A DNA stretch of 64,000 nucleotides from positions 2,155,472-2,219,471 of the forward strand of contig OX638353.1 in the NCBI GenBank assembly GCA_951813255.1, in the 5' to 3' direction. The DNA is from an uncultured Dehalococcoidia bacterium (GTDB lineage Bacteria > Chloroflexota > Dehalococcoidia > Lucifugimonadales > JAAXIE01). The position numbers were made by a program, and so were the translations under genes. Below, in pieces: positions 26,393-63,520 of this stretch. Position 1 is the first letter of the stretch. Each line of letters begins with the position of its first letter. Below the pieces are notes generated by a model, which was not told the DNA's origin, did no database searches, and saw only the letters and a program-made list of their open reading frames with translations.

Positions 26393-26467
26393 TGGAGCCG
26401 GCGAGGGGATTCGAACCCTTGACCTGCGGTTTACGAAACCGCTGCTCTGCCACTGAGCTACGCCGGC
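26393..26467 (-). tRNA. tRNA-Thr (anticodon CGU)
   Basis: The reverse complement is GCCGGCGTAGCTCAGTGGCAGAGCAGCGGTTTCGTAAACCGCAGGTCAAGGGTTCGAATCCCCTCGCCGGCTCCA. It has a 7-bp acceptor stem, anticodon loop TTCGTAA, a TTCGAAT T-loop and encoded CCA. One A-C mismatch sits in the T stem. Confidence 0.85.
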
Positions 26468-31191: not shown

Positions 31192-31295
31192 TGCCGCGGT
31201 GATGGGTAGCGCACCGACAGCGAGTAGGCCTTCGCTTTCCTGTCTAGCAACGGGTGATGGGCACTTTCGTGCTCTGTCGGCAATGGGAGGTCAAT

Positions 31296-32705
31296 GTGCC
31301 CAAACGCAGGCGCAAGGGTCTATCAGTCATGGAGACAATGGCGGCATTGCTACTCCTGTTGCTGGCTTGGTTCATTGAGCATCCGTGGATTTCGTGGTCG
31401 CTTATGGGCTTCGCATCTGTCCTCGTGCTCATAGGCGCTTGGCGAAAACTCCACACGGACAGGCGCATCACCTCGTCCTTAGGGACATCACCTGCTAACG
31501 ACTCAAACCGAGCGACGCATGCTCCTAGCCCGAACGAGGCGCAAGAACTGGGGGTTTGCGTAAAGGAGGGCGCTTTGACAGACCATGACTCCCTGCTGTG
31601 GCCTGTAACCCCAAGATGGGGACACGTGACTGCCGAACCAAGTCAAGTCGGAATAGTGATGCGCAACGGCAGCTTGCACTCCCGCTGGCATGGGGGTAGG
31701 AAAGCAGTTCCCGTAACGGGTGAGATAAGAACCTACCTTGTGTCTACCAGGCCATTCGACATCCGCTTCAGTGTTTCGGATGCGACACCAGGCCCACAGT
31801 CTGCGCAAGCCATGTTGGAGGGGACAACCAGTGACCACTCGCCGATACACGGATCCGTGGAGGTGAGGCTACAGGTTAATGAGGAAGTCGCCGATTGGCT
31901 GTTGAACATAGGAGGCCAGGTAACTACGACCGACGTAGCACGCCATATCAGACTGGATGTGGCTACGGCCGTAGCGGCGGTTGGGTCTGAACATGCCGCA
32001 TCTGAATTCAGAGGTTATAGCCAAGACATCTCCGAATCGATTAGTGAGGAACTCGAGAAAGCTCTCAAGAGGCACGGCCTGGGGGTAGTGCGACTCTATG
32101 CTAATCTATCGGCTGGAACGCCCACCCTCGACTCAGGTCCCACGAACACCAAAACGGTGTCCACGGATTCCCCACCCCAACCTACCGTGCCAAACACTGA
32201 ACGAGCTTGGATTGTGCGAGGCAAGGCTGGTGGAAAATACTGGGTTGTCGACCAGTTTGTGGACAAGGAGGTCGTCTCGATCGGTTGGCCGGCGATGGGA
32301 GACTTATCGAGGTTCAGCGCCAAGGGAGAACTGAGAAGCGCGCTTAAGAGATTCCACCCTGAGTCGGGAGATGGAACGGTCAATATCCTTTGGGGCTTCT
32401 GCCGGGAAATCTGCGTCGGGGATGTGATTGTAACTCCGGCTCCGAACCCTCTTTCGGCGAAGCCTAGAACGAAGCCGTCGCAGATCGTGATTTGGCGCTG
32501 TATTGGCCCTTACGAGTATAACCCAGGGGTCATAGAGTGCAGCAAATACCCGTTTGCAAGCATCCGGAAAGTAGAGAGGGTGGCTATCGTCAGCGTGTCG
32601 AGGCTCTCACAGAAGCTCCAAGACCGCCTGCAACTACCACCCACAGTGTCCCCAATCAAGCAGCAAGAGTATGTACAGGAACTGGAGTCGGCGATCAAGA
32701 GCTAG
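31296..32705 (+). CDS. SPFH/Band-7 (stomatin/flotillin-like) paralog 1. N-terminal hairpin membrane anchor, SPFH domain, and a C-terminal domain resembling the N-terminal domain of many Mrr-type restriction endonucleases (RAWIVRGKAGGKYWVVDQFVDKEVVSIGWPAMGDLS).
   Basis: GTG start 5 nt after GGGAGG. Basic N-terminus KRRRK then two TM helices. The SPFH core (LLWPVTPRWGHVTAEPSQVGIVMRNG...RTYLVSTRPFDIRF...GSVEVRLQV...GLGVVRLYANLS) aligns with the two downstream paralogs and with HflK/stomatin SPFH motifs. Confidence 0.7.
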   Translation: MPKRRRKGLSVMETMAALLLLLLAWFIEHPWISWSLMGFASVLVLIGAWRKLHTDRRITSSLGTSPANDSNRATHAPSPNEAQELGVCVKEGALTDHDSLLWPVTPRWGHVTAEPSQVGIVMRNGSLHSRWHGGRKAVPVTGEIRTYLVSTRPFDIRFSVSDATPGPQSAQAMLEGTTSDHSPIHGSVEVRLQVNEEVADWLLNIGGQVTTTDVARHIRLDVATAVAAVGSEHAASEFRGYSQDISESISEELEKALKRHGLGVVRLYANLSAGTPTLDSGPTNTKTVSTDSPPQPTVPNTERAWIVRGKAGGKYWVVDQFVDKEVVSIGWPAMGDLSRFSAKGELRSALKRFHPESGDGTVNILWGFCREICVGDVIVTPAPNPLSAKPRTKPSQIVIWRCIGPYEYNPGVIECSKYPFASIRKVERVAIVSVSRLSQKLQDRLQLPPTVSPIKQQEYVQELESAIKS

Positions 32706-32738
32706 AGCGATATCAGGCGAGACCAAGAGAGGGCTCCA

Positions 32739-35252
32739 TTGAGCGAAGAACACCGCGACGACCTAGTATTAGCACCCGGCGAACCCCGCCGGGGCAACCT
32801 CATCATCTACCCCTACCATGTGGGCATCGTCATATGCAACGGAAAAGTGGAAGGCGTCTTCCCCGAAGGTACCAGACGCCTTCCTAGGGGCGATGTGCGT
32901 ACCTATGTGGCCTCCACCGCTCCCTTCAACCTCACCTTCTGGCTCCAAGACCCCGGCGACCCCTCCGAGCCGGGTGAGGGGATGGCATTGGACCAACCCG
33001 TCCTCACTGCCGACGGCCAACTCGTCACCGGCCGCATCGATCTCACACTCTCAGTAGTCCCCGACAACGCAGAACACCTGCTGCAACTCCTTAGCCCCGG
33101 CGGCGCCATCACACGACGCCATGTCGCCGACTCCATCAAGAGCGAACTGCTCGCCAAGGTCCTCGCCCTCGACCTTCACACCCACACCGCAGGCACCCTG
33201 CGCGGAAACCGCGACCTCTTCCAAGGTATCTATGCCTCCCTCGAAATCGAACTCGCATCCACCATCTCCCGCTACGGCCTCAAGCTCGACAACTTCTACG
33301 TCAACTGGGGCCTCATTCCCGAAGAGCGCGAGCGCATCAAGGAAGAACGCCACCAGAGCGTCATCCGCGACATCGAACGCGAGTCCGAGCTTGAGCGTCT
33401 GGGCGGTCGAAGGCCCGGCGGTCCGGGCGGCGGTGGCTCCTCAGTCGGCAGGTCCGGCGGAGCCCCAGGCGGCTGGTTCAACCTTCCACGAGGCATCGGA
33501 GTCCTAGCCCTCATCCTTTTCGCGGCCTTGATTGCAACCCTGTTGGCAGTCGACCCCGCCGGCTGGTTCGACGACTCGCCCGATGCAACGCCAGTCGCTG
33601 CTGCCACTCCCCAGCCCGCTCCAACGTCTGACCGCCCGCCGGCCCCCGCGCCCGCTCCCACCACTGAAGACATTCAGGCAGCAGTCGCCGCCGCCATAGC
33701 CCAACTGCCCCAACCCTCAGCCGGGCCATCCATGGACGAGGTGGCCGCCCTCGTCTCCGCATCCGTTGCGGAGGCGTCCGGCAATAACGCCTCCCCTGAG
33801 GAGATACAAGGCCTCGTGGCCGATACCATCGCCAAAGCCATGGCCAGCCAGCCCCAACCCGAATCCGGCCCCACCCGCGACGAAATCGCAGCCATCATCG
33901 CCGAGGCCATCCCCACTTCCGCCTCCAGCGAGGGCCCCTCTCCGGCAGAGATTCAAGCCATGATTCAGCAGGCCATCGCCTCCCTCCCCCAACCAACCCA
34001 AGCTGAAGCCGGTCCAACCTCCGAGGAAATCGACGCCCAAATTCAGGCAGCCCTCTCCTCCCTCCAACCCGGCATGACCCCGGAACAAGTGCAGGCCGCC
34101 GTGCAACAGGCCGTTACGGCCTCCATCGCATCCATGCCCACGCCGACTCCAGCCCCAACTCCCGCTGCCGCACCGCCTCCCGCAAGCTCGGCCACTCCCG
34201 CGCCCACAGCTACCCCTACTGCCGCGCCCACCGTCCAAGCAACGCCTACCCCCACTCCAGCAACCGAACCACGCGAAGCAGAACTCGTGTGGAGCTACGA
34301 CACGGAATCCGAGGTGTGGTCCTCTCCCGCCGTGTCGGAAGAGTGGGACGTCTTATATGTGGGCGCAAGCCATGGTTACTTGTACGCTTTGGATACGGTG
34401 ACGGGCCAGCTGCTGTGGCGGTACGGACCAGGAGCAACAACTTCCTGGCGATCATGGCCAGTTGTGGTGGGGAAGACAGTGTACACAGGAGGAAATGAGT
34501 ATTACGGCACCGATTTACTAGCCGTAGAAGCAGGGGAACAGCGGTGGGATGTTCGGTCGTGCTACATTTGTGTTGCACCCATTTTCTCCGCTGGGAGCAT
34601 CTACGTGGGCAGCTCGGGGTCGTTATATGCTCTTGACGCGGCCACTGGTGCACAACATTGGTACTACCGTACAGCGGTGAGAGAAGGTTCCATTCGGACA
34701 CGGCCGTCCGTAGTTGACAAGATGGTCTACTTCGGGGCTGATGACAAGCGCATATATGCTCTGACCACGAAAAAGGGCGAATTGATTTGGAGCTACGCCA
34801 CCAATGCCGCAGTCCGCTCTTCTCCTACCGTCGCTGACGGCATCGTGTATGCTGGCTCCAACGACGACCACCTGTACGCGGTGAACGCGGAGGCGGGCGA
34901 GTTCATCTGGCGGTACCGAACGGGCGGAGACGTCATTTCCTCTCCCGCAGTCGCAAACGGCATCGTCTACGTAGGTTCCAATGACGGCAGCCTGTACGCC
35001 CTCGACGCCACAACGGGCACGTTAGCCTGGAGCTACGAGACAGGCGGTGCGGTGGTGTCCTCACCTGCAGTGTCCGACGGGGTCGTGTATGTGGGGTCAT
35101 ACGACGGGTTCCTGTACGCCCTTGACGCCGCCACCGGATCACTGGTCTGGAGTTATGAGACCGAAGACAAAGTAGCGTCCTCGCCAGCCGTATCGGGCGA
35201 TAACGTGTACGTGGGGTCGGTGGATGGGCATGTGTACGCCTTCCGGAAGTGA
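32739..35252 (+). CDS. SPFH/Band-7 paralog 2 (837 aa). Domain order: SPFH domain, Gly-rich linker, single TM helix, seven ~23-aa amphipathic repeats (PS.EEIQA.I..AIA..PQP), a Pro/Thr/Ala linker, and a C-terminal PQQ-like/BamB-like beta-propeller.
   Basis: TTG start after AGAGAGG. SPFH motifs VLTADGQLVTGRIDLTLSVVPDNAEHLL and GLKLDNFYVNWG. TM helix GIGVLALILFAALIATLLAV. About 8 repeats of (V/I)Y(V/A)GSxDGxLYALDAxTGxxxW typical of the PQQ beta-propeller fold. Confidence 0.75.
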   Translation: MSEEHRDDLVLAPGEPRRGNLIIYPYHVGIVICNGKVEGVFPEGTRRLPRGDVRTYVASTAPFNLTFWLQDPGDPSEPGEGMALDQPVLTADGQLVTGRIDLTLSVVPDNAEHLLQLLSPGGAITRRHVADSIKSELLAKVLALDLHTHTAGTLRGNRDLFQGIYASLEIELASTISRYGLKLDNFYVNWGLIPEERERIKEERHQSVIRDIERESELERLGGRRPGGPGGGGSSVGRSGGAPGGWFNLPRGIGVLALILFAALIATLLAVDPAGWFDDSPDATPVAAATPQPAPTSDRPPAPAPAPTTEDIQAAVAAAIAQLPQPSAGPSMDEVAALVSASVAEASGNNASPEEIQGLVADTIAKAMASQPQPESGPTRDEIAAIIAEAIPTSASSEGPSPAEIQAMIQQAIASLPQPTQAEAGPTSEEIDAQIQAALSSLQPGMTPEQVQAAVQQAVTASIASMPTPTPAPTPAAAPPPASSATPAPTATPTAAPTVQATPTPTPATEPREAELVWSYDTESEVWSSPAVSEEWDVLYVGASHGYLYALDTVTGQLLWRYGPGATTSWRSWPVVVGKTVYTGGNEYYGTDLLAVEAGEQRWDVRSCYICVAPIFSAGSIYVGSSGSLYALDAATGAQHWYYRTAVREGSIRTRPSVVDKMVYFGADDKRIYALTTKKGELIWSYATNAAVRSSPTVADGIVYAGSNDDHLYAVNAEAGEFIWRYRTGGDVISSPAVANGIVYVGSNDGSLYALDATTGTLAWSYETGGAVVSSPAVSDGVVYVGSYDGFLYALDAATGSLVWSYETEDKVASSPAVSGDNVYVGSVDGHVYAFRK

Positions 35253-59269: not shown

Positions 59270-60460
59270 CTACGCAGCCACTGGGGCCTGCGCGGGCAAC
59301 CTGGTTACGGGCGCCTCCGTGCCGGGCTGATCTAGGTTGATTTTCTTAAGTTCAGGCAGGCAGTACTTGGCGAACATCTCCTTCGACTTCATCACCTTGT
59401 CGTGGGACATGTTGCCGCAGCGGAACATGCATAGCAGGTTGCCGTAGCCTGCCACCTCGGCGTCTCGCTTCAACCATTCCGTCACATAGTCAGGGTCACC
59501 GCACACCATAACGCCTTTGCGACGCCTCTCGTCGAAGGGGATGTCGTTAGAGAGGGCGTCGACCCCGGCATCCTGGGTGAGGGTTCGATGGGAGAAAGAC
59601 CTGTCGGTCTGGTGACCCGGCAGGGCCGCTGGCGCGTTCAGGGGCCGGGAGAAGCCTTGGGGCCCGAACATATAGTCCAGCGCCGGTCGTGCCTCCTCAA
59701 TGGCCTGCTCGTTGGTCTCGGCCACATGTATGAATCTGGACCCCGTGAATGTGCTGAAGGCAGGGTTCCAGCCATATTTCTCCCGTGCCACGTTTCTGTA
59801 GGTGTCGAAACAGTCGCGGAACATCTCCGTGGGGAACCAGACCTGGCAGCCGACAATCCGGCGCTCTGCGCAGAATTCGATGCTCTCCAACGATCCCGTA
59901 GGCATCCAGAATGGGATGGGATTCTGGATGGGGCGTGGCCAGACGGAGACCTTGGTCAACTGATAGAACTTGCCATCATAGTCAAACTCCTCCTCAGTGA
60001 GGCACTTGAATATGATGTCGAAACACTCCTTCAGTTTTTCGCGGCTGCTGAAGGGGTCGACATTGTAGGAAACGTACTCTGCCGGTATCCCCCTCACTAT
60101 GCCACCGATGAAACGCCCGCCGGAGAGGCAGTCGATCATGGCGAACTCCTCGGCGGTGCGTATGGGATGGCGCAGGGGTATGACGTTTCCGATAACCCCC
60201 ACCTTGATCTCCTTGGTGAGCATGGTGACGGCAGTGGTGGTGATGTTACAAGCGGGCTGAATATTGAACGCCGTAAAGTGGTGCTCGTTGGTCATGATGC
60301 CATCGAACCCCTGCTCTTCGCTGCATGCCCACTGTTCCATGTGCTCCATGTAGGTCTGGTGCACCAGCTTAGGATCACAGAAGCGGTTGCTGAACCTAGT
60401 TTCCCAACCGATTTCTGGAACGTAGGGGTAGGTAAGCTCGTCAAATTGCAAAAGCTTCAT
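59270..60460 (-). CDS. LLM-class (luciferase-like) flavin/F420-dependent oxidoreductase
   Basis: GFDGIMTNEHHF motif. The ATG at 60460 (preceded by AAGGAA) avoids overlap with the divergent gene at 60643. The ORF-track start at 60862 is unlikely. Confidence 0.65.
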   Translation of the reverse strand: MKLLQFDELTYPYVPEIGWETRFSNRFCDPKLVHQTYMEHMEQWACSEEQGFDGIMTNEHHFTAFNIQPACNITTTAVTMLTKEIKVGVIGNVIPLRHPIRTAEEFAMIDCLSGGRFIGGIVRGIPAEYVSYNVDPFSSREKLKECFDIIFKCLTEEEFDYDGKFYQLTKVSVWPRPIQNPIPFWMPTGSLESIEFCAERRIVGCQVWFPTEMFRDCFDTYRNVAREKYGWNPAFSTFTGSRFIHVAETNEQAIEEARPALDYMFGPQGFSRPLNAPAALPGHQTDRSFSHRTLTQDAGVDALSNDIPFDERRRKGVMVCGDPDYVTEWLKRDAEVAGYGNLLCMFRCGNMSHDKVMKSKEMFAKYCLPELKKINLDQPGTEAPVTRLPAQAPVAA

Positions 60461-60642
60461 AACTCGTTCCTTCGGAAGCATATTGGGGAATGCACCGAGG
60501 GCCTCCTCGGTTCGCTCAGAGTAGCCATGGCACTTGAGGGTGTCAACATCGGTAGTATGACCCTCCGGCCCGGCTTGTCCTGGCACCGACGGCCTGTCCA
60601 TGGGAACATACGGGTAGCAAGAAACGGACGGGATGTGACACG

Positions 60643-61107
60643 ATGGCAAAGACAGTCTACTTGGCCAACCCCTACGGGTTCTCTGAGCAGCAGAAGACAC
60701 TGCTGCTGCCTCTGGTGGTGGCAGCATTGGAAGAACTGGGCTTAGAGGTGTGGGAGCCCTTTGCCCGCAACAATCAGGTCGATTTCTCCCAAGCAGGATG
60801 GGCCTACCGCATAGGGCAAGCGGACTTCGCCGATGTGCGGCATGCCGACGCCATTTTCGCAATCGTCAATGGTGTGCCACCGGATGAAGGGGTCATGGTG
60901 GAATTGGGCATGGCGATCGCCTTGGGGAAGCCCACATTCCTGTTCCGGGACGACTTCCGACGCCTCTCCGACAGCAACGAGTATCCCCTGAATCTGATGG
61001 TATTCACCGGACTGCCGGAAAACGGCTGGGAGGACTACTACTACACATCCGTGGAGGAAATCGTTGCAGCACACAGGCCGCTGGCCAAATGGGCCAGCGG
61101 CCTGTAG
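60643..61107 (+). CDS. Nucleoside 2-deoxyribosyltransferase-like protein
   Basis: MAKTVYLANPYGFSE...FAIVNGVPPDEGVMVELGMAIALGKP matches the NDT family. Confidence 0.7.
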   Translation: MAKTVYLANPYGFSEQQKTLLLPLVVAALEELGLEVWEPFARNNQVDFSQAGWAYRIGQADFADVRHADAIFAIVNGVPPDEGVMVELGMAIALGKPTFLFRDDFRRLSDSNEYPLNLMVFTGLPENGWEDYYYTSVEEIVAAHRPLAKWASGL

Positions 61108-61113
61108 CGACGG

Positions 61114-63114
61114 TTACCGGCGTCTCCATTCACCGATGTTCCACAGTTCGCTGTCCCAGCCATTGATGAACACGCCCAGCAGGGTATCGTGGTGTGCAGA
61201 CACGTAACCTCGGTTGACCAAGGGAATCTCGTAGTAGTTCTGCACCCAGATATCGTTCAACTGTTTGATCAGGTCTGAACGTCCCGGTCCGGGCCTGCTC
61301 TGGGCTAGTTGCTCGAATAGTTGGTCGTATTCTTCACTACACGCTCTGGATATGTTCCCGCCCGCCCAGTAGTTATCCCGCGTAGGGATCTCATGGCACA
61401 ACGACCCGGACAGATAGGACTCGGGATCGATATCGGAGCCACTGGCGTACATCTGGGCATCGGCGAAGAACCGCCGGTATGTGGCGGCAGCGTCTTCCAC
61501 TGGGTCGCCGCCGAAGAAGAGCCCACCATCGTGCTGCACCAACTCAGTTTCGATTCCAATCTGGCGCCACCAGTCCCGGACCAGTTCCTGCGTAGCTTCA
61601 CGAACGTCGTTCACTGAAGTTTGGAAGGTGAGCCGTAAGGGTAACCCTTGGTACTCACGAATCCCATCGCCATTGTGGTCCACCACCCCGTTGTCATCCA
61701 GGAGTTGGTTTGCACCTTCGATATCCTGCGTCAAGCAACCGTCTTTTGCGGTCGAGACATAGAGCACGGGGCCGGTGATGAAGTTGCATGTCGGCTCCCC
61801 CCCGAACCCGTACAATTGCTCGGATATAACTCGACGGTCAATGGCCATGGACATCGCTTGCCTGATCGGCTTAAAGCTCAGGACCGGATGAGGATTGTTC
61901 CCCCTCAGGTATTCCGAGCGGTCTTCGCCCAAGTCGGGGTCGGGGTTAGTCTGGTTCAGAACGATACGCTCGACCAAGCTGGCAAAGCCGGCAACGACAA
62001 CGCCCTGACCATCCACCTCCATCTGGCTCAGGATCTCTGGTTCCACCTGTAGGTTCCAAGCATAATCAGCGTCTCTTCTTTCCAACACGCGGCGAGCCGC
62101 TTCTTCAGCACTCGACGCACCACTAATCACCACCCGGTCGAAATAGGCAGGAGCGCCGTGGTAATAGGGGTTCCGCTCATATATTGCATGCTCGTTGGCC
62201 TCGAAGGTGGTGATGCGATAGGGACCCGTGCCCAGCGGAGCGTTATTCTCAGCGTGGCATCCTACCGCAGCAGCACCAATGCAGTCCCCGAATTGCGTCT
62301 CGCTGATGATAGGAGTCGTGGTGCTAACGAAGGCAGTGTAGGGATAGGCCCTGGGTGCGTCGAAGTCGATCCGGACGGTGCGGTCATCCAAGGCCGTCAC
62401 GGAAACGATGCCGTGGAAGGCCCCTTCCGCTGAGCAGCCCGTGTCTTCGTCCACACAATATCGCCACGTGAATACCACATCGGAGGCGGTCAGCGGAGTC
62501 CCATTGGACCACCTGAGGCCCTCTTTGAGAGCCCATGTGATGGAGGTAAGGTCTGCTGCAACACCACCATTGGCCACCGTAGGTATCTCTCTCGCTAGGG
62601 CGGGGACTAGATTACCGAAGGGATCGTACTTGGCCAAAGGTTCGAGGGTTACAGCAGCAGCATCCCGATCTTTGAAACCACCCGACAGGTAAGGACTGAG
62701 TATAGTCGGGGCCTGCCAGTAGAGCAGGCGCAACACCTGTTCTTCCTGCAACGTCGCGTCCGAGGCTCCCGGCGCACCGGACTGGCCTGGGGGCCCTCGC
62801 TCCCCAGTTGCACCGGTCTCGCCACGGGCTCCCGGAAGACCACGTTCCCCAGCATCGCCTTTCGGGCCTTGGGGACCAGGCCCACCCGGTTCACCTTGTG
62901 CGCCAGGCTCTCCAGCTTCTCCTCTGGGGCCTGCAGGGCCAGCCAATCCGGTGTCACCCTTGGGTCCTTGCATCCCGGTGGGGCCGGGTTCGCCTTGGGG
63001 GCCAGCAATTGTGGATTCATCGATCATCCGCTGGACCTCTTCTTCCGTAAGGCCGCCAGAGCAGCCCAAGGCCAGCAATAGGACAAGTGCAAGAAGCAGC
63101 GGAAGTACTTTCAT
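61114..63114 (-). CDS. Lipoprotein ABC-transporter substrate-binding protein (family 5, peptide/nickel type) with an N-terminal collagen-like stalk of 26 G-X-Y triplets
   Basis: [21 protein letters not shown] lipobox. Then [80 protein letters not shown], followed by ~560 aa SBP_bac_5-like sequence. Confidence 0.75.
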
Positions 63115-63520
63115 AGCAATACCACCCGGAAAAGCTGTTAGGCCGCTCTGCAAAAAGGGGAGGAAGTAGGCGGAGGGTCAATATCTATTATAGCGAAAGA
63201 CGGCGGAAGTATCCAGTCTGGTATCGGAACCATAGCTTGAGGTTCGCTAGCTTACCGGACTGACAGGTTTAATTGACCTCCAACTCGCGCCTGAGATGTA
63301 TCCTATCGGCCCCCCGATGGGCTTCAAAATTGACAGGCCACAAGGAAGGTATATAGAATGTCGAGGTATTGATTCTGAGTATCAGTGACCAGTGCGACAA
63401 TCAGGGGCTGAATATGGCCGATGCGAGCATCGGCCATTCCTTAAGGGCGTCGCGGACTGCGGCCCAACTCCAAAGAAGCTGCCCTCTTGCAGCTTTATCC
63501 CCACCCCAGCCGAGGTGTGA

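Follow-up and report, generated by a model that had tools for sequence, protein, structure and literature searches.

The window analysed here is a stretch of 64,000 nucleotides from an uncultured Dehalococcoidia bacterium (contig OX638353.1), and close to its end it holds, on the minus strand, a complete gene (61114..63114) for a lipoprotein that joins a collagen-like stalk to a family-5 solute-binding protein (SBP) domain, as read from the open reading frame (ORF), its translation and Pfam matches to Collagen and SBP_bac_5. The gene comprises 666 codons plus a stop, and the 666-aa product is built, in order, of a lipobox signal peptide, a 19-aa motif, 27 Gly-X-Y triplets, an 8-residue hinge and an SBP domain of ~540 residues. 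The ORF as listed runs further upstream, to a TTG at 63153; we adopted the ATG at 63114 (MKV...) as the true start because a Shine-Dalgarno-like site read from the sequence (GGGTGG, 63122..63127, minus strand) lies 7 nt 5′ of it, the starts of the orthologues fall at MK or MR, and the sequence further upstream is unconserved.

The repeat occupies aa 38-118 (62761..63003, minus strand) as 27 uninterrupted triplets, visible in the translation and as a match to Pfam Collagen (PF01391) of 49.4 bits against a cut-off of 27.2; with its long uninterrupted (Gly-X-Y)n run and its match to this family, the product is a bacterial collagen-like protein. Given a Gly frequency of 0.086 outside the repeat, the probability of 27 Gly in register is ~1.6e-29, and the chance of such a register over all six-frame positions of the window is ~2e-24; across all six reading frames of the window, the second-longest run of G-X-Y has 5 triplets. 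The 54 X and Y positions are filled mainly by P (15), A (9), E (7), Q (5), T (4), R (4), K (2) and D (2). A first-pass annotation of this stretch had described a solute-binding lipoprotein with a collagen-like stalk between lipobox and family-5 domain, and the ORF and the Pfam matches show that protein to be real. It was right in calling the repeat uninterrupted but gave 26 triplets, having missed the final one, GAS, and of the residues in which it called the repeat rich, Pro and Glu stand whereas Lys, with 2 positions of 54, does not. A short variable hinge, DATLQEEQ (62737..62760, minus strand), defined by alignment and by an AlphaFold2 (AF2) model, leads from the collagen to the first SBP beta-strand, which begins at residue 127 in the model; in orthologues the hinge is 7-18 aa long and unconserved.

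At its N-terminus the protein carries a signal peptide with the lipobox LALGC (63061..63114, minus strand, read from the sequence), which makes Cys18 the predicted lipid-modified mature N-terminus. All 7 aligned full-length members of the collagen-bearing clade described below have L16, G17 and C18, and the lipobox Cys is nearly invariant among 120 family members; by this signal peptide, with a lipobox at its end and a conserved Cys, the product is a bacterial lipoprotein, with lipidation itself predicted. Between the lipid anchor and the collagen lies a conserved 19-aa motif (63004..63060, minus strand), recognised in the clade alignment, in which G21, L22, E24, V27, M30 and I31 are invariant. 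AF2 places a helix at residues 24-33 of this motif with a low predicted local distance difference test score (pLDDT), and the ratio of nonsynonymous to synonymous divergence (dN/dS) of the motif is 0.14-0.45 in a codon alignment of 6 genes. As the only candidate of its kind seen, it is possibly a nucleation or trimerisation element. The motif is acidic and resembles short helices that directly follow collagen in two unrelated proteins, P0135 and P0194 (GLTQAEIEAIIDDV, TREELDAMIEER). A similar acidic helix adjoins the collagen in just 1-3 of 120 unrelated collagen-like proteins, and we record as a lead that such a motif may be a recurrent collagen-capping element.

The remainder of the protein (61117..62736, minus strand; Pfam, AF2 and Foldseek) is a family-5 solute-binding domain of cluster C, in which 8 Cys are conserved. 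Over aa 169-539 it matches SBP_bac_5 (PF00496) with 198.5 bits against a cut-off of 32.4 (E 2.4e-58), which places it in this family, and its best phmmer match in the PDB has E = 3e-19. The AF2 monomer has a predicted TM-score (pTM) of 0.71, with pLDDT mostly 70-97 in the SBP part. In a Foldseek search of the PDB it matches NikA, AppA, OppA and chitin-oligosaccharide SBPs (E 1e-31 to 1e-28; 15-21% identity; TM-scores normalised to the target, TM-t, of 0.75-0.84, with 0.66-0.81 for the top-ranked matches), and the modelled domain shows a bilobed fold of the periplasmic-binding-protein type that includes the additional cluster C domain. The conserved Cys form four close pairs (220/227, 278/286, 443/460 and 573/592) that are kept family-wide, which fits an extracytoplasmic, disulfide-bonded domain.

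Collagen-coding repeats are generally prone to slippage, and this is the one general point in favour of reading the block as an assembly or sequencing artefact, or as a recent strain-specific slippage product without function, a reading to which we give practically no credence. Tandem Repeats Finder detects no DNA tandem repeat in the collagen-coding stretch (62600-63200), a separate repeat search reports only two short imperfect pairs, and all four Gly codons are in use in the block; the region is therefore unique DNA rather than a collapsible or slippage-prone array. A 100% identical protein, P0001, is present in an independent 3.4 Mb record, orthologues occur in several long-read contigs and in 3 species-representative genomes, and the divergence among them is ancient, with synonymous sites saturated and the reading frame intact. 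The first-pass annotation had named two findings that would count against it, a repeat produced by assembly and orthologues that uniformly lack it. Neither was found: there is no repeat at the DNA level and the same architecture recurs in independently assembled contigs and chromosomes, and the syntenic orthologues, at 68-93% SBP-domain identity, all carry 15-31 triplets.

Altogether, 11 orthologous sequences including the window gene bear the collagen at the same site: 8 protein clusters and 3 Dehalococcoidia species genomes, again with 15-31 triplets. The clusters, formed at 90% identity (P0001, P0002 and P0008-P0013), hold ~80 member sequences, and lipobox, motif, collagen and SBP domain are common to all. 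The genomes come from a scan with an N-terminal-motif pattern of one genome per GTDB species, in which 465 pattern matches led to exactly 3 confirmed loci, L004, L005 and L006, whose records are titled 'MAG: Dehalococcoidia bacterium' and whose genes have 27, 31 and 28 triplets. In a neighbour-joining tree of the SBP domain alone, drawn from the best 120 matches only and without bootstrap support, all eight clusters with collagen group in a single clade that contains no other sequence. SBP identity within this clade is 68-93%, against 67-71% to the nearest non-collagen relative.

Gene order is common to the window and to all six orthologous loci read (L001-L006), with gene calls available for L001-L003 and the same order in L004-L006. 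Downstream, the order is SBP, nucleoside 2-deoxyribosyltransferase, luciferase-like oxidoreductase, a 169-aa ORF, alpha/beta-hydrolase, SurE and methylmalonyl-CoA mutase, and the immediate neighbours of the SBP gene are the deoxyribosyltransferase and, upstream, a divergently transcribed gene. That this divergent gene encodes a putative permease is faintly suggested by the window sequence as read here and by a weak match to Xan_ur_permease in L003. The non-collagen family members occupy unrelated gene contexts. These comparisons confine the collagen block, among the relatives examined, to one monophyletic, syntenic clade. The nucleoside 2-deoxyribosyltransferase (60643-61107, plus strand) has thousands of homologues, the best 120 of them at >=76% identity; it adjoins the SBP gene only in the clade with a copy at least 85% identical, and synteny breaks just outside the clade (L012-L014). 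No SBP gene was found beside a deoxyribosyltransferase of 79-83% identity, where we had sought a positional orthologue with a PT linker that would show replacement in situ. The luciferase-like oxidoreductase ORF of the window (59270-60862, minus strand) is 530 aa long from a TTG and is over-extended, with orthologues of 396 aa in L001-L003.

The SBP domain family to which this clade belongs is very large, with >4000 matches, of which the best 120 show 60-86% identity. In 112 of these 120 there is no collagen, and the stretch from the lipobox Cys to the SBP domain is a PT/Glu-rich low-complexity linker of 8-80 residues, a propeller insert, or absent: PQQ-like beta-propeller inserts of 450-580 residues occur in some of the 112 (P0035/37/38/48/52/76/87/91), and the stretch is missing in truncated or tandem-SBP proteins. 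An exhaustive HMMER search of 1.84 billion representatives at 50% identity returned 447 matches at E<=1e-30, and G-X-Y runs are absent from all 107 distant representatives examined out of the best 150, which carry at their N-terminus Ala/Pro/Thr linkers, RTX-like GGxGxD repeats (P0262/269/275) or Ser/Thr kinase domains (P0264/265). Because relatives hold linkers or inserts at the same position, the collagen block sits where a spacer is expected, and the earlier description of it as an unusual way to space or trimerise an SBP fits these data, in which the other relatives examined carry PT linkers or other inserts there. Add-ons are especially frequent at the N-terminus in this SBP family, and P0065 carries a C-terminal Peripla_BP_6 fusion. 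Elsewhere in the window (31254-35252, plus strand), a Band_7/SPFH gene is followed by one for an 837-aa protein with a C-terminal PQQ_2/BamB-like beta-propeller, the same propeller type as is fused to the SBP relatives. Searched against a set of 5.8 billion proteins, the mature N-terminal module (aa 19-125) retrieved only generic collagen-like proteins of <190 aa, of phage tail-fibre and Bacillus type, and missed its own cluster, so this search is of no use as a census of lipobox-collagen-X proteins. A scan of JGI metagenome contigs with patterns of the module returned nothing.

How the stalk has evolved was read from the codon alignment, which comprises the window gene and its orthologues from five loci. 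Synonymous sites are saturated (dS ~1-3 or undefined), and yet the core Gly residues (triplets 2-25) are invariant, departures being confined to the first triplet and the last two, and all length differences among orthologues are whole triplets. The X and Y positions have a dN of 0.35-0.68 in all pairs but the near-identical L001/L005, compared with 0.05-0.21 for the SBP domain, and thus evolve 2-6x faster than that domain, and dN/dS over the collagen block is 0.12-0.39. This pattern shows, at the level of codons, a block under purifying but relaxed selection in which the Gly-every-third register is selectively kept. Between the window (62761-63003) and its closest genome relative, L006 (10064-10315), the collagen dN is 0.33 and the SBP dN 0.055, a difference of ~6x, and this fast divergence resembles the hypervariability of the streptococcal Scl collagen regions. 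Pairs in which K or R at Y is followed by E or D at the next X are found 33 times against 14.9 expected from position-class shuffles, a ~2.2-fold enrichment over 11 related and hence non-independent sequences. Such pairs stabilise triple helices that have no hydroxyproline.

These observations bear on whether the G-X-Y block is anything other than a monomeric, extended, polyproline II-like flexible tether equivalent to the PT linkers, in which case the SBP would be an ordinary monomeric receptor. The block does lie in the exact position of the relatives' linkers, which span 8-80 aa, its length varies two-fold among orthologues, from 15 to 31 triplets, its X and Y positions evolve as fast as the L006 pair illustrates, no trimerisation domain is convincing, and the AF2 monomer is without structure in the block. 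A flexible tether, however, has no need of Gly at every third residue, and still the core register is unbroken in 6 genes despite saturated synonymous change, every indel is a whole number of triplets, K/R-G-E/D pairs are enriched, and no other family member examined has drifted to G-X-Y periodicity. We consider the flexible tether possible, if on the unlikely side. Our main argument for a triple helix is that a spacer needing only length and flexibility would not hold the Gly register; the triple helix and the trimer are what we infer from the sequence, and the evidence reaches as far as being compatible with them.

The protein is thus best explained as a family-5 SBP lipoprotein of monoderm Dehalococcoidia, anchored in the cytoplasmic membrane, whose PT-rich tether has been replaced in one clade by a collagen-like segment. 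Dehalococcoidia are monoderm bacteria with a surface layer (S-layer); in Tepidiforma, the one genus of the class imaged by cryo-electron tomography, a space of 40 nm separates the 7 nm membrane from the S-layer, and SAR202 isolates have no peptidoglycan genes and a visible outer layer (PMC10284905, PMC10444878). In cells of this kind, an SBP must be lipid-anchored. Bacterial collagen-like regions without hydroxyproline fold into triple helices that resist trypsin (PMC8968730), and from its sequence the segment described here probably forms a rigid rod of ~23 nm joining three binding heads. With slightly better than even confidence, we propose that, in place of the flexible tether, a homotrimeric triple-helical stalk keeps three SBP heads between membrane and S-layer. 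Three lipid-anchored chains would associate, with their co-localisation in the membrane, and possibly the 19-aa motif, helping nucleation, and would then zip from N- to C-terminus into a protease-resistant homotrimeric triple helix ~1.5 nm wide. Its length would be 27 x 0.86 nm = ~23 nm, with 13-27 nm across orthologues, and its tip would bear three ~60-kDa heads on short flexible hinges of 7-18 residues. The stalk would fix the distance of the heads from the membrane, within the wall or S-layer space, and the local valency of the receptor would be tripled; compared with a PT linker, it would offer a fixed stand-off, resistance to proteases and a local valency three times as high. To reach an ABC (ATP-binding cassette) permease of the Opp/Dpp/Nik type encoded elsewhere in the genome, loaded heads would rely on pivoting at the lipid anchor and at the hinge, which is the weakest step of the proposal.

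Several observations weigh against a rigid trimeric stalk. In the AF2 monomer, residues 31-122 have a pLDDT of ~30. The conserved N-terminal motif spans only ~2 heptads and its helical hydrophobic moment is not above that of shuffled versions, so it is at most a candidate for a dedicated trimerisation domain. Having failed to outdo its shuffles when tried as an amphipathic coiled-coil nucleator, the motif is retained as a lead. P0008 (G->S) and P0012 (G->R) have a single internal Gly substitution each, and the genome copy equivalent to P0008 keeps Gly at the substituted position. Without hydroxyproline, 27 triplets may be marginally stable. SBPs normally act as monomers, and on a rigid rod of 23 nm the heads would be remote from a permease in the membrane unless the rod tilted. 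No partner permease was found among the 30 Pfam-scanned ORFs of the window or, from the gene calls of L001-L003, in the collagen-bearing orthologue loci, and the sole non-collagen relative seen beside transporter genes accompanies a set of a different type, Fur-ZnuA-ABC_tran-ABC-3.

On its ligand, the protein gives few indications. None of the NCBIfam equivalogs with a named ligand (Opp4A, NikA, DppA, CntA and others) assigns it, the best being Opp4A with 99 bits against a cut-off of 650, and the solved structures, at 15-21% identity, are too distant for a ligand to be taken from them. An Rfam-type scan of the window returned no riboswitch or other RNA clue upstream of the SBP gene, and the sole match at gathering score across the window is a tRNA gene (26396-26467, minus strand). 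In locus L009 (4315-9791), the gene of the non-collagen relative P0030 begins 33 nt after an operon of Fur, ZnuA, an ABC ATPase and an ABC-3 permease, and because of this neighbourhood and the NikA-like structural matches the family may bind metals or metal chelates, although these are hints only. The first-pass annotation had further stated that no cognate ABC permease or ATPase gene is adjacent, and this holds among the 30 larger ORFs of the window, in which a Pfam scan found neither. Some 70 nt 5′ of the start there is a weak match to a sigma-70-like promoter (TGGATA-17-TATAAT, 63187..63215, minus strand) that agrees with the consensus at 10 of 12 positions, in a consensus scan that gave 2 sites against 1.1 expected by chance; the match suggests that the gene may have its own promoter and be transcribed alone.

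An orphan gene with a promoter-like site of its own, and without ABC genes nearby in the orthologous loci with gene calls, could also be expected of a collectin- or Scl-like surface device that is not, or not only, a transporter receptor, in which a trimeric stalk and three heads would serve adhesion, signalling or the high-avidity binding of material that is polymeric or attached to particles. The order of anchor, short helix, collagen and globular head mirrors class A scavenger receptors and collectins. It also mirrors the lollipop shape of Scl proteins (PMC8968730). The SBP-domain relatives P0264 and P0265, fused to Ser/Thr kinases, indicate that the domain is used for sensing too. The head, however, has a genuine cluster C SBP fold that is conserved throughout the family, and at least one family member directly follows an ABC operon (L009). 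Many orphan SBP genes share a permease encoded at a distal site. The protein has no LPXTG motif, its C-terminus reading ...NIGEWRRR, and the NCBIfam models of Scl1, Scl2 and Lcl score 52, 44 and 41 bits against cut-offs of 400, 325 and 500, so it is not assigned to these adhesins. We therefore hold a surface device of this kind to be distinctly unlikely. A broader idea sees in the protein a bacterial equivalent of scavenger receptors and collectins, whose lipid-anchored collagen triple helix would gather three transporter-type heads into a 'bouquet' and act as a molecular ruler across the membrane-to-S-layer gap, for high-avidity capture at the cell surface of substrates that are polymeric or bound to particles; this is speculative and, in our judgement, unlikely.

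If this broader idea is correct, the protein would be the first ABC receptor that is obligately trimeric and tethered by collagen, and its stalk the first functional collagen helix to be described from Chloroflexota. In the usual view, SBPs shuttle as monomers and are tethered by passive linkers; a conserved, register-constrained collagen stalk would show that selection acts on the length, stiffness and valency of a tether in monoderm bacteria coated with an S-layer. The functions of prokaryotic collagen, so far mostly those of adhesins, spore fibres and phage fibres, with one efflux channel, would then include an uptake receptor. As an 81-residue, hydroxyproline-free candidate triple helix with natural length variants of 15-31 triplets, the stalk could interest collagen engineers. 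The immediate impact is moderate, as neither a new pathway nor a ligand comes with the protein and the organisms are uncultured.

Lipoprotein SBPs of cluster C are already known, and so are collagen-like regions in bacteria; it is their combination in this protein that is new as far as the literature and the relatives examined show: it is absent from a review of prokaryotic collagen-like domains (PMC8968730) and from full-text literature searches. With the lipoprotein SBPs of the OppA/AppA/NikA type, which serve monoderm importers, the protein has in common a lipobox anchor, a bilobed extracytoplasmic cluster C fold and a tether between anchor and domain. Their tethers are short or PT-rich and unstructured, whereas that of the window protein is a 27-triplet collagen-like repeat, and where they are normally monomers, the window protein implies a trimer, has no adjacent permease or ATPase and is only 15-21% identical to solved SBPs. 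With the collagen-like proteins Scl1 and Scl2 of Streptococcus pyogenes, BclA of Bacillus and Lcl of Legionella, it has in common an uninterrupted G-X-Y run rich in Pro and charged residues, with no evident need of hydroxyproline, as well as length variation between relatives, anchoring at the cell surface and a globular head in a lollipop design (PMC8968730). As opposed to these proteins, which are attached through a C-terminal LPXTG or to the exosporium, it would be anchored by an N-terminal lipid, its head is a transporter receptor fold rather than a V or C1q-like domain, it has no recognised trimerisation domain, and its host is a free-living member of the Chloroflexota and not a pathogen. 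The only described case we found of a transport component bearing a collagen-like triple helix is Bucl8 of Burkholderia pseudomallei and B. mallei, an intrinsically trimeric TolC-like outer-membrane efflux channel with its collagen on the outside (PMC7682875). Unlike in Bucl8, the collagen of the window protein is the tether of an uptake receptor of the cytoplasmic membrane and would itself create the trimer.

A closer match in overall layout is offered by eukaryotic proteins, the 'defence collagens'. Class A scavenger receptors (SR-A, MARCO), collectins and C1q combine a short helical segment and a collagenous stalk with three ligand-binding heads placed C-terminally on flexible hinges, SR-A and MARCO having an N-terminal membrane anchor as well, and the stalks of C1q, mannose-binding lectin (MBL) and SR-A, with ~20-30 triplets, are similar in size to that of the window protein. 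The likeness to these proteins is an architectural analogy; their heads are not homologous to an SBP, they use hydroxyproline, and their function is immune recognition. Among transporters, GlnPQ, with its tandem substrate-binding domains fused to the permease, likewise brings more binding domains near the transporter (PMC8025302). Multivalency is achieved there by covalent fusion in a single chain and would be achieved in the window protein by oligomerisation through a collagen helix, and the SBP family described here reaches it by tandem duplication as well, in the double SBPs P0003-P0007.

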